From a virus (Duplodnaviria; Caudoviricetes), in the IMG/VR virus record IMGVR_UViG_3300027733_000013, positions 1 to 33,803 of that record: DNA of 33,803 nt. One strand, given 5' to 3'. Shown in pieces: positions 4,337 through 12,721 of this stretch. The notes beneath the pieces were generated by a model. The model saw only the letters and a list, made by a program, of their open reading frames with translations. It was not told where the DNA came from and made no database searches. The position numbers and the translations under genes are program-made. Numbering within the stretch: the first letter of the stretch is position 1; the number at the start of each line of letters is the position of its first letter.

Positions 4337-4717
4337 TTAATAAAATATCATCTTACCTATTTTTGTTTTCTTGCGTTTGCCAAACCATTGAGCTTTTGGC
4401 GCAATAGAATCATCATGGAAATATAAAGCATTTGCAACTGGGTTAGCATGTTTATGATAAACAATCGTATCAATAACCAAAAGTTTAGTCTCCAAATACG
4501 CCCTTTCATCAACTGGATCGTGGGACTCATCTTGCACAGCAAACTGATTATTAGCATAAACGACAGAACATACAGAATAACCCCAGCGACCAGTATGCAA
4601 CCTATTGCGAATAACATTGATAACCCCTACCTTTTCTTCTAATGAACGAGTATTTACTTCGTGATAAACAGCAGTAGCATAGCAAGCTATATCTAATTCT
4701 AAATTTGTCATATCCAT
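4337..4717 (-). CDS. SleB-like cell wall hydrolase (Hydrolase_2)
   Basis: C.ATAVYHE...V.NVIRNR...SVCSVVY...QF...ALYFH...KIGKMIFY. Confidence 0.85.
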   Translation of the reverse strand: MDMTNLELDIACYATAVYHEVNTRSLEEKVGVINVIRNRLHTGRWGYSVCSVVYANNQFAVQDESHDPVDERAYLETKLLVIDTIVYHKHANPVANALYFHDDSIAPKAQWFGKRKKTKIGKMIFY

Positions 4718-4749
4718 ATATTACACAGCCTTCTTTAATGGTTTTACTG

Positions 4750-4804
4750 TTACCCCAAAATGAGTAGCAGCGTATAATGCACATATAAATCTAAAGAAAG
4801 GAGA
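4750..4804 (+). promoter_or_regulatory. Putative sigma70 promoter and RBS of pqqA
   Basis: Perfect TATAAT at 4773-4778; weak -35 TTACCC 17 bp upstream; AAAGGAG before the ATG. Confidence 0.55.
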
Positions 4805-4811
4805 ATAGACC

Positions 4812-4883
4812 ATGTGGACTAAACCTACTGCTACAGAAATGCGTTTTGGCTTTGAAGTAACCATGTATGTAATGAATAAATAG
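4812..4883 (+). CDS. pqqA: Pyrroloquinoline quinone precursor peptide PqqA (23 aa; not in ORF track)
   Basis: MWTKPTATEMRFGFEVTMYVMNK: W-x-x-P leader, R-x-GFEVTMY core with the E-x3-Y pair, strong RBS. Confidence 0.96.
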   Translation: MWTKPTATEMRFGFEVTMYVMNK

Positions 4884-4889
4884 TTATAA

Positions 4890-4933
4890 ATGATAAGGGA
4901 GACACCATTAAAATGGAACGTCTCCCAAGTCAT
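4890..4933. terminator. Stem-loop between convergent pqqA and ssb-like gene
   Basis: GGGAGAC 4897-4903/GTCTCCC 4920-4926 with inner CCAT/ATGG; U-rich tail on the minus strand. Confidence 0.6.
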
Positions 4934-5183
4934 CTTCAACATCTGCACCCTTAGCAGATTCTTCTTGTATTCTTGGCTGCGCTTGTTTGCCAATAGAAAA
5001 CTTTTTAAACTCACGACCTTGAGCTGTAAGCCTATTACTAATGTTTACATAGTAAGGCGTATTAGGTAAAATATCTTCTGGTGTAATTAACACACCACTA
5101 TAATCAGCATGCCAATCTTCTACTTTTTTATCATTAGGAAAAAGATTACAAGTGCCTGGTTTAGGTATAAATGATTCTGCCAT
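4908..5183 (-). CDS. Putative single-stranded DNA-binding protein
   Basis: Acidic tail EDDLGDVPF; follows the SSAP and exonuclease. Confidence 0.65.
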   Translation of the reverse strand: MAESFIPKPGTCNLFPNDKKVEDWHADYSGVLITPEDILPNTPYYVNISNRLTAQGREFKKFSIGKQAQPRIQEESAKGADVEDDLGDVPF

Positions 5184-5186
5184 ATA

Positions 5187-5735
5187 TTACTCCTTAGTAT
5201 AAATTGGTTTACGTTTCCATCTTGTTGGTTCTACATCTGTTTCTACAAACTCCATAAATTCTAACAACAAAGGCGTATACCAGTCAAGCCATTTCTCATC
5301 TTTCTTTACAAGCTCAACTGTAATGCTATTAGGTGTCCATACACTAAACCATCCTTGATCTCTACCGGTGCAATGTATTTGCATTTGTACTTGATAATAA
5401 TAACGATCAGGCATAGTAGGATAAAACTCCATGCTAAAAGGGCATTTAAGCTCTACAGGATCATCATTAAAGTAAGCATCAGCACTAGCACCCATAGGCA
5501 AACTATCATGCACTATAAGTTTATTGCCAGGCATACAAAAGTCACCCATTTCTTTTTCAAAAGCTGACAAAGCATCACGTTCATGTAAATTACCCCACGC
5601 AGTAGCTTCGTTACCTTCAAATGGTGGTTCACGCATAGTCATCTGACGCCAGAGCTTTTGTCTTTCATTAACAGAAGCCCAAGCATTAGATGCTGTTACT
5701 ATGTTATGCCTACGATTGTCTAGTAGGTGACTCAT
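5187..5735 (-). CDS. YqaJ/lambda-exonuclease-like recombination nuclease
   Basis: R...VTAS, WG..HE, GASADA, ELKCP, YYYQVQMQ. Confidence 0.9.
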   Translation of the reverse strand: MSHLLDNRRHNIVTASNAWASVNERQKLWRQMTMREPPFEGNEATAWGNLHERDALSAFEKEMGDFCMPGNKLIVHDSLPMGASADAYFNDDPVELKCPFSMEFYPTMPDRYYYQVQMQIHCTGRDQGWFSVWTPNSITVELVKKDEKWLDWYTPLLLEFMEFVETDVEPTRWKRKPIYTKE

Positions 5736-11478: not shown

Positions 11479-11835
11479 ATGAATGAATTTATAGCCACAT
11501 TATTTTTAGCTAGAGAATTAGCACATAGATACCATTTATCTACTAAAAGCTATTCACAGCATAAAGCTCTACAAAACTTCTACGAAGATCTATTAGACTT
11601 AACAGATGATCTAGCAGAAATCACACAGGGCGCACATGGTCTATTAGATATACCTATCCTTACAGAGAAGAAAACATACAAAGAACCTTTATACTGTATC
11701 GCTGACAAATTACAATATGTAGAAACTAACCGTTATAAAGCATATAGCAAGAATGACACAGCTCTACAAAACAAGATAGATGAAATCGTAGCAACATTCC
11801 TAACAGTAATCTACAAGCTAGAAAACCTAAAGTAA
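11479..11835 (+). CDS. Ferritin/Dps-like four-helix protein (DUF5856-like)
   Basis: AHRYHL.TKSYSQHKAL..FYE.L.DL.D.LAE..QG, YKLENLK. Confidence 0.75.
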   Translation: MNEFIATLFLARELAHRYHLSTKSYSQHKALQNFYEDLLDLTDDLAEITQGAHGLLDIPILTEKKTYKEPLYCIADKLQYVETNRYKAYSKNDTALQNKIDEIVATFLTVIYKLENLK

Positions 11836-11836
11836 C

Positions 11837-12721
11837 ATGGCAAGCGTTAGGGACACACTAGCTAACCTTGTAGAACAATATAAGGCAGGTGATACCCCAC
11901 TAGCAAACTTAATGCGTGGTGACACAGAGGGTGCTAAACAATCAGTAGCAAATGCACTACAACAAGCCACACAAGATCCATACTCAGGATTAAATGTATT
12001 AGGCACTACAAAGCTAGTAGGTAAAACAGCTCAAGAATTAGCACATGCAACAGCTCAAAAGAACGCTGCAGAAATGTTAGGATTACATCCTGAAAACACA
12101 GCTATGGAAAGAGCTAAAGCTATGGGGTTTGATATAGAAAATCCTGTATATCATGGTACAAGAACTAATATTGAAAAAATAGATCCATCAAAATTTGGTA
12201 AATCAACAGAAACATATTCTGGTGAATCTGGATTTTGGACTTCTAGTGATCCACATACAGCAAACAGTTATGCTAATTATGCAGCATATCATGCACCAGC
12301 AAATAGACTTGGAATAGGAAGTCAAGAGGTAAAAAATGCCCTTCCTAATAGAAAACAAAATATTTTGCCATTATATCTTAATAAAACAAATTTATTAAGT
12401 ATGGATGCAAAAGGTAAGTCATGGGGTGATTATTTAGATAATCCTAATTTAGACACACAATTAACTAATTTTTTAGATACAATTAATCAAAAAAACGCTA
12501 TAGGCGAAATTAAAAATTTTGATGATGTAGCTTCTTATATGCAACCTAAAGTAGCTCATCATTATGTTACCCCTGATCCATCACTTGTTAGATCACGTTT
12601 TGCAGCATTTGATCCAGCAAGAGCAAACGAACCAGATTTATTAGCAGGTGCTATGGCATTACCAATAGCCACAGACAAAGAAAAACGTAATAAAATAATA
12701 GAATTACTTAAAAACAAATAA
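11837..12721 (+). CDS. Protein with putative ADP-ribosyltransferase (ART-PolyVal-like) domain
   Basis: PVYHGT...GFWTSSDP..ANSYA...NILPLYL, framed by RAKAMGFD and RSRFAAFDP. Confidence 0.6.
   Translation: MASVRDTLANLVEQYKAGDTPLANLMRGDTEGAKQSVANALQQATQDPYSGLNVLGTTKLVGKTAQELAHATAQKNAAEMLGLHPENTAMERAKAMGFDIENPVYHGTRTNIEKIDPSKFGKSTETYSGESGFWTSSDPHTANSYANYAAYHAPANRLGIGSQEVKNALPNRKQNILPLYLNKTNLLSMDAKGKSWGDYLDNPNLDTQLTNFLDTINQKNAIGEIKNFDDVASYMQPKVAHHYVTPDPSLVRSRFAAFDPARANEPDLLAGAMALPIATDKEKRNKIIELLKNK

Follow-up and report, generated by a model that had tools for sequence, protein, structure and literature searches.

The window, by which we mean the whole stretch of 33,803 nucleotides analysed here, is a complete 33.8-kb phage genome with a 127-bp end repeat (class direct terminal repeats, 100% complete), and profile searches revealed terminase, portal, capsid, helicase, and YqaJ genes in it. 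Within a block of minus-strand genes, between an SSB-like ORF and a cell-wall hydrolase, a 72-bp ORF runs antisense at 4812-4883(+), and its 23 intact codons translate as MWTKPTATEMRFGFEVTMYVMNK*. The features of the locus are listed below.

4337..4717, minus strand: left flank, cell-wall hydrolase (Hydrolase_2; PF07486 E 5e-16; phrog_938)
4719..4890, plus strand: indel cassette, approximate extent, from alignment with the empty alleles L262 and L269; antisense to the surrounding genes
4735..4751, plus strand: degenerate Methylophilaceae PQQ-gene box, 37 nt before the -10; putative activator site
4773..4778, plus strand: TATAAT, putative -10 element; YATAAT in 21/21 distinct syntenic upstream sequences
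4797..4803, plus strand: Shine-Dalgarno AAAGGAG; Shine-Dalgarno core before 109/112 viral pqqA copies
4812..4883, plus strand: pqqA, 23-aa PQQ precursor peptide (E15-x3-Y19), from profile matches and codon analysis
4897..4926, no strand assigned: hairpin that runs into the 3' end of the minus-strand ORF 4908-5183, whose terminator it likely is
4908..5183, minus strand: right flank, SSB-like ORF, a label suggested by position and the acidic C-terminus
5187..5735, minus strand: YqaJ-like exonuclease of the recombination module (PF09588 E 5e-16); pqqA-independent bait for relatives

The ORF encodes PqqA in a bona fide viral genome

The initial annotation of the ORF as PqqA was borne out by both curated family models, since the peptide exceeded the cut-offs of TIGR02107 (39.3 bits, cut-off 20, E 4e-10) and PF08042 (40.7 bits, cut-off 21.1). 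The codons of Glu15 and Tyr19 lie at 4854-4856 and 4866-4868, respectively, and the core E15-V-T-M-Y19 was unchanged in 21 distinct syntenic CDSs, with the length of ~23 aa and the W-x-x-P leader also present. A peptide identical to the window's PqqA was found in 2 of 116 bacterial-genome loci, suggesting that processing of the phage peptide by PqqB-E is likely. The TATAAT and AAAGGAG motifs reported near the ORF were both located (4773-4778 and 4797-4803). A shadow ORF of 97 aa lies antisense over pqqA at 4721-5014(-), similar to those in Melnitz and ctXG6705, in which gene callers placed spurious antisense ORFs over pqqA (L125:3961-4056(-) and L126:2067-2195(-), respectively).

Searches for PqqB, PqqE, PqqC, and PqqD found no match anywhere in the window genome. 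The absence of pqqB-E, claimed from the outset, thus holds for a complete genome; the PqqC search was silent in control genomes too, so that this negative is weak taken alone. With phage genes flanking it on both sides, pqqA stands alone in a viral context and is not host contamination. The right-flanking ORF 4908-5183 had no family match of its own in Pfam, PHROG, and a further family search; its positional counterpart is an annotated SSB in ctXG6705 and matched PHROG SSB families in L040. Among the 54 regions of the window scanned with Pfam, no integrase or repressor families were found. Elsewhere in the genome, a DUF5856 gene (11479-11835) and an ART-PolyVal gene (11837-12721, ADP-ribosyltransferase-like, match below cut-off) come before the terminase genes.

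The possibility of a chimeric assembly had also been raised, and it found no support, as independent contigs span both junctions. The left junction was crossed by contigs of other public runs, X2 (4637-4858) and X3 (4652-4858), with 0 differences, and the right junction by X5 (4836-5435) and X16 (4832-5230, 0 differences); the identical CDS occurred at the same site in three IMG/VR contigs. A 399-nt contig in RNA runs matched 4832-5230 exactly, and being unstranded it could be DNA or a minus-strand transcript. Depth peaks over the CDS were rejected as a sign of expression, because they were summed contigs of other organisms. When 87 viral loci (80 long pattern-selected and 7 reference loci) were compared with 80 host pqqA neighbourhoods, no proteins were common to both except pqqA shadows. 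A further sample comprised 120 viral loci, of which one had host-like genes; the PqqB motif was absent from all of them.

pqqA is maintained by selection yet dispensable

Relatives were collected via the neighbouring YqaJ gene, which gave 45 loci; the 40 at no less than 59% identity were examined, of which 5 ended too early and 35 were informative. This set was used for the dN/dS analysis because loci selected by a peptide pattern have residues fixed by the pattern, which would be circular. Of the 35 relatives, 33 had an intact pqqA, free of stops and frameshifts and antisense in the corresponding position, and the other two (L262 and L269) had a clean empty site. A third empty allele was seen in a contig of run X15, in which 43 other nucleotides separate 4718 from 4940. 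L262 and L269 were placed separately among carriers on the YqaJ tree (2 changes), which fits two separate losses or replacements of pqqA.

Across 21 distinct CDSs from 34 loci, dN was 0.035 and dS was 0.79, giving a ratio of 0.045 (codon bootstrap 0.009-0.13). Within the 23 loci of one promoter type the ratio was 0.035, and codons 9-19 were without amino-acid change. The other reading frames over pqqA gave ratios of 0.24-3.5, compared with 0.045 in the plus frame. Neutral decay of the homologues, which the initial annotation had named as evidence against a function, was therefore not what the relatives displayed. Purifying selection together with the relatives that have empty sites indicates that pqqA is maintained yet dispensable, and the low ratio could partly be inherited through re-acquisition from hosts. 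As an intact, host-derived metabolic homologue under purifying selection, pqqA is a candidate auxiliary gene.

The hairpin at 4897-4926 does exist (-20.1 kcal/mol; z -5.1 and -4.8 on the two strands), but as a dedicated pqqA terminator it did not stand. Its loop and right arm fall within the final codons of the minus-strand ORF 4908-5183, the U-rich tail lies on the strand opposite to pqqA, and comparable hairpins are found in both pqqA-less relatives L262 and L269 (z -4.0 and -2.8). Since it is also present in the empty alleles, the hairpin belongs to the neighbouring minus-strand gene, of which it is likely the terminator; it is possibly used in both directions and at most shared with pqqA, and, judging from the empty alleles, it is older than the cassette. 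Similarly, the span first given for the cassette (4750..4933) marks a real locus, but the cassette starts earlier, with the box at 4735-4751, and does not include the hairpin. A moron is a self-contained inserted unit. The cassette resembles one in being absent from the same site in L262 and L269 and in its conserved, putatively active promoter elements, but it lacks a terminator of its own.

A box shared with the host PQQ genes

A freshwater Methylophilaceae host is suggested by three lines of evidence. Among the first 80 bacterial-genome matches, 69 were named Methylophilaceae or Methylophilales, 9 had higher-rank names, and 2 came from one Acidovorax-labelled MAG; the best cultured match of the helicase was Venkman (44%); and the runs in which this phage is best represented were freshwater.

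In this family, pqqA was found in 61/61 genomes with 1-12 matches each, and pqqB gave a single match in 39/41 genomes; 3-12 pqqA copies have been reported for Methylophilaceae (PMC4109929). By these gene counts, the hosts amplify only pqqA among the pqq genes compared. Orphan Methylophilaceae pqqA copies are like the phage's in standing alone and in having the same peptide and the same box, and their peptides are processed in trans by one pqqBCDE operon (PMC4109929).

The host box has the consensus YTMATGAWWWTCATKAG, a TMATG-N5-CATKA dyad. It was found in 102/129 host pqqA upstream regions, on which the matrix was trained (shuffled 0.6), and in 73/176 viral pqqA upstream regions (shuffled 1.5). 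The three pqqA copies of Methylopumilus universalis all have the box upstream, and so do its pqqB and the gene for a TonB receptor that matched PqqU best among the families (E 6e-82, with a partial protein far under the model cut-off). Across the family, it lies before 18/22 PqqU-like receptor genes (shuffled 0.2) and before 30/30 pqqB loci, with pqqA in between in 27 and no adjacent pqqA in 3. No box was found upstream of the methanol dehydrogenase (MDH) genes, including xoxF, in three genomes. Judged by its sites, the box set is an apparent PQQ synthesis-and-uptake regulon comprising the pqqA copies, pqqBCDE, and the PqqU-like receptor, but not xoxF. Palindromic box sites were seen at G001:C1 416025, 457622, 576378, 580839, and 1186146 and at loci L482-L533. 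A full-text search, with most subscription journals outside its coverage, found no published description of the box or of a PQQ regulon.

OxyR and LysR sites follow the T-N11-A rule. OxyR was considered as the regulator and not supported, as the dyad does not have the T-N11-A layout, oxyR is convergent, and exact-match boxes in Methylopumilus were at pqq rather than peroxide genes. The spacing of the two host sites does resemble LysR promoters. One host pqqA copy was convergent to oxyR in several Methylophilaceae genomes (L134, L138, L146, L151, L160, L161, and L178).

The phage promoter carries a single, weak box

In host pqqA promoters, a strong box lies 60-61 nt upstream of the -10 and is followed after 23 nt by a weaker half-site (59/102), and TATAAT is rare, whereas the phage has a single box at 37 nt and TATAAT. 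The phage layout is nearer to that of the PqqU-like receptor promoter in the hosts, where one box stands at 38 nt. Consensus TATAAT occurred in 41/112 viral and 1/116 host pqqA upstream regions. Because this hexamer occurs 31 times in the genome, it is no evidence alone; its conservation in the relatives is. A generic sigma-70 scan made no call at the pqqA promoter, which has no good -35, and returned 4 sites in the window vs 5.0 expected; a generic terminator scan gave one terminator-like site (4941-4959) vs 0.6 expected.

On the pqqA-trained matrix, the window's box scored -0.4 bits, which is weak. A composite model of box plus -10 was trained on host receptor promoters alone, using 19 of the 22 PqqU-like promoters after L496 (no site) and both L486 and L490 (best match judged out of register) were dropped. 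With it, the window site ranked 3 of 67,514 positions with a score of 13.2, and two other genome positions scored slightly higher (13.6 and 13.5). The model was passed by 17/21 syntenic, 110/177 viral, and 3/6 named-phage regions (shuffled 0.3, 3.1, and 0.0, respectively), and was not passed by 4/21 syntenic and 3/6 named-phage upstream regions. The 37-nt spacing from box to YATAAT was found in 17/21 distinct syntenic upstream sequences and exactly in 34/85 viral promoters having YATAAT, and 4736-4778 is the sole such arrangement in the window genome. Conservation of the box columns was 0.96, compared with 0.79 for the spacer and 0.68 for upstream DNA (15 distinct sequences), a comparison that is partly circular as the rows were chosen by the 5' half of the box. 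The L274-L281 group kept pqqA with no scoring box. In five cultured phage genomes, the exact box-plus-10 pattern matched just the pqqA promoter of MEP301, giving no sign of a phage-wide regulon.

The box is centred ~42 nt upstream of the putative start and there is no good -35, an arrangement that would suit an activator site. Since the box precedes host genes for PQQ synthesis and for a PqqU-like importer, but not xoxF, the activator may answer to PQQ demand.

Leaders differed among viral loci. Many viral pqqA leaders (L002, L013, L038, and L285) carry, between the -10 and the Shine-Dalgarno sequence, a short inverted repeat adjoining the former, which is possibly a 5' stabilising hairpin and is absent from the window. 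The T4-like loci L010, L020, L022, and L028 had nearest sizeable ORFs and leaders unlike the single-box type, and in L020, L022, and L028 the box lay ~150 nt upstream, which suggests a long leader, perhaps a structured RNA.

pqqA is widespread and unannotated in methylotroph phages

Extrapolation put the number of IMG/VR stretches (rather than species) with pqqA at 770 under a strict pattern and at ~2,200 under a looser one. The start and M(x)W-x-x-P were present in 113/113 distinct viral copies, the leader having been left free in the search. The neighbours of viral pqqA included T4-type regA, gp32, Hsp20, GroEL, a capsid gene, and Erf, and these differences indicate that unrelated phage types carry the gene.

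Among 50,697 GenBank phage records, tblastn matched 12. Nine of them are cultured Methylophilales phages of several lineages (Venkman, MEP301, P19250A, MEP401, MEP402, and four records of Melnitz), whose PqqA was 77-96% identical to that of the window; the remaining ones were one uncultured spring phage and two weak matches labelled 'Acinetobacter phage MD-2021a' (E 0.06). None of these GenBank records annotates pqqA. NCBI taxonomy also lists MEP431-434, HIM624-A, pHIMB624-A, Venkman EXVC038S, MG-MTP1, and RSA-MFP1, which were not among the matches, where absence from the collection and absence of the gene look alike.

Where both neighbours were visible, pqqA was antisense to both in 29/66 viral and 10/68 host loci, and co-directional with both in 21/66 viral loci. 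In Venkman (L121), MEP301 (L122), and ctXG6705 (L126), it lies antisense right after YqaJ/Erf/SSB genes, as in the window (4812-5735); this slot after distantly related recombination genes suggests a common slot or an old insertion. In a 72-kb viral contig (L347:1057-2379), pqqA is flanked by a thioredoxin-like ORF on one side and, on the other, by a 239-aa ORF resembling genes that adjoin pqqA in host loci L163, L172, and L196.

Proposed role and alternatives

One PqqA peptide is consumed per PQQ, the enzymes are catalytic and reused, and the PqqE/PqqD step is established. From the make-up of the locus, we consider it fairly likely that this intact pqqA with its own promoter elements serves as an extra precursor copy, probably switched by the host regulator, providing PQQ for MDH during infection. 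The host's PQQ regulator would switch on the phage pqqA, phage DNA replication would add template, and host PqqB-E would convert the phage peptide into PQQ. The cofactor would then supply holo-MDH during infection, and more PQQ may result in a larger burst size. An extra copy is the simplest reading because hosts multiply pqqA alone and xoxF was the most abundant transcript in OM43 (PMC5120137); by analogy, precursor supply would fit the hosts' many pqqA per single pqqB. On the other side, pqqA is absent from two separate relatives, and the hosts already have ~3 copies. OM43 culture medium contains 1 nM PQQ (PMC9004378) and could thereby mask any effect of phage pqqA.

The precursor copy may be real and its promoter constitutive or phage-driven, the box being a relic of a captured host promoter. 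Phages that strengthened the promoter would be expected to display the viral excess of TATAAT, and both the degenerate window box and the boxless L274-L281 group point the same way. We nevertheless regard a relic as unlikely, given the (partly circular) conservation of the box columns, the recurrence of the 37-nt spacing in unrelated phages, and the lack of a good -35. It is less probable still that extra PQQ serves another purpose, such as antioxidant protection, a second PQQ dehydrogenase, or excretion. A second PQQ-dehydrogenase-family gene does occur in Methylopumilus and another streamlined genome, one host pqqA copy adjoins oxyR, and a peroxiredoxin-like gene neighbours pqqA at a T4-like viral locus; but that oxyR is convergent, not divergent, the box is without T-N11-A, the exact-match boxes in Methylopumilus mark pqq rather than peroxide genes, and MDH is the obvious sink with xoxF as the top OM43 transcript (PMC5120137).

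The antisense position, seen in the window and in 29 of the 66 viral loci and recurring after the recombination genes of Venkman, MEP301, and ctXG6705, would also be expected of a decoy or brake, in which the peptide titrates PqqD/PqqE, the boxes titrate the activator, or antisense transcription damps downstream phage genes. A decoy need not stay a substrate, whereas the entire core with E15 and Y19 never varies and matches that of the hosts; selection acts on the plus-frame protein and not on the other frames, and 21 of the 66 loci are co-directional on both sides, which makes such a role very improbable. We give the least credence to a passenger, attachment site, or assembly artefact, that is, a conserved multicopy host pqqA that was simply picked up. 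In metagenome assemblies, the 72-bp CDS attracts numerous contigs from other organisms, which makes chimeras conceivable, and pqqA adjoins a recombination module. Contigs of other runs nevertheless cross both junctions, the identical CDS recurs in three IMG/VR contigs, the dS of 0.79 places the conservation at the protein rather than the DNA level, and neither an integrase match (54 regions, Pfam) nor a PqqB motif at viral loci was found; this explanation is already largely refuted.

Taking the favoured reading of an extra, host-switched precursor copy further, we put forward, as a possibility that may well fail, that pqqA is near-universal and invisible to annotation in Methylophilaceae phages, and that most copies plug into an undescribed host PQQ regulon whose sensor decides the timing of precursor supply.

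Relation to earlier reports and significance

The initial annotation had allowed that viral pqq genes might already have been noted, and this was correct. PqqA was published in 2020 in the Lake Baikal population VP_266, a predicted Methylophilaceae phage (Coutinho et al. 2020, Microbiome 8:163; PMC7678222). Like the window, VP_266 encodes PqqA with a proposed boost of methanol oxidation; it differs in being T4-like and also encoding methanol dehydrogenase, whereas the window phage has 33.8 kb and pqqA alone, and the passages on VP_266 contain no analysis of synteny, selection, promoter, or prevalence (PMC7678222). A 2026 study of reservoir sediments describes virus-encoded pqqA, pqqD, and pqqE as auxiliary genes (PMC13188868). 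In its relevant passages, viral pqqA is read as phosphate solubilisation, with no locus anatomy, and is missing from the genes for which transcription is reported (PMC13188868). A PqqA-like family co-expressed with defence systems has also been described (PMC11118758). The main texts on Melnitz, MEP401/402, MEP301, Venkman, and two MAG phages do not mention phage pqqA, and a full-text search with most subscription journals outside coverage found no papers on viral pqqA prevalence. Viral pqqA has thus been known since 2020, and the window is a well-supported further example, not the first. We did not find in print the ~2,200 IMG/VR stretches, the copies left unannotated in 9 cultured Methylophilales phage records, or the operator link.

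Of these results, the operator link and the overlooked copies in cultured phages deserve further work. They make the question testable, as cultured phage-host pairs (Venkman, Melnitz, MEP, and P19250A) carry the gene, natural empty alleles exist, and the box points to a host PQQ regulator of which we found no description in the literature. Cyanophage psbA supports photosynthesis. Should the benefit prove real, this 72-bp gene would by analogy act like psbA but supply a consumable substrate instead of an enzyme, and pqqA would mark Methylophilaceae phages in viromes. If the wider proposal is true, PQQ precursor supply would be among the chief constraints on phage production in pelagic methylotrophs.
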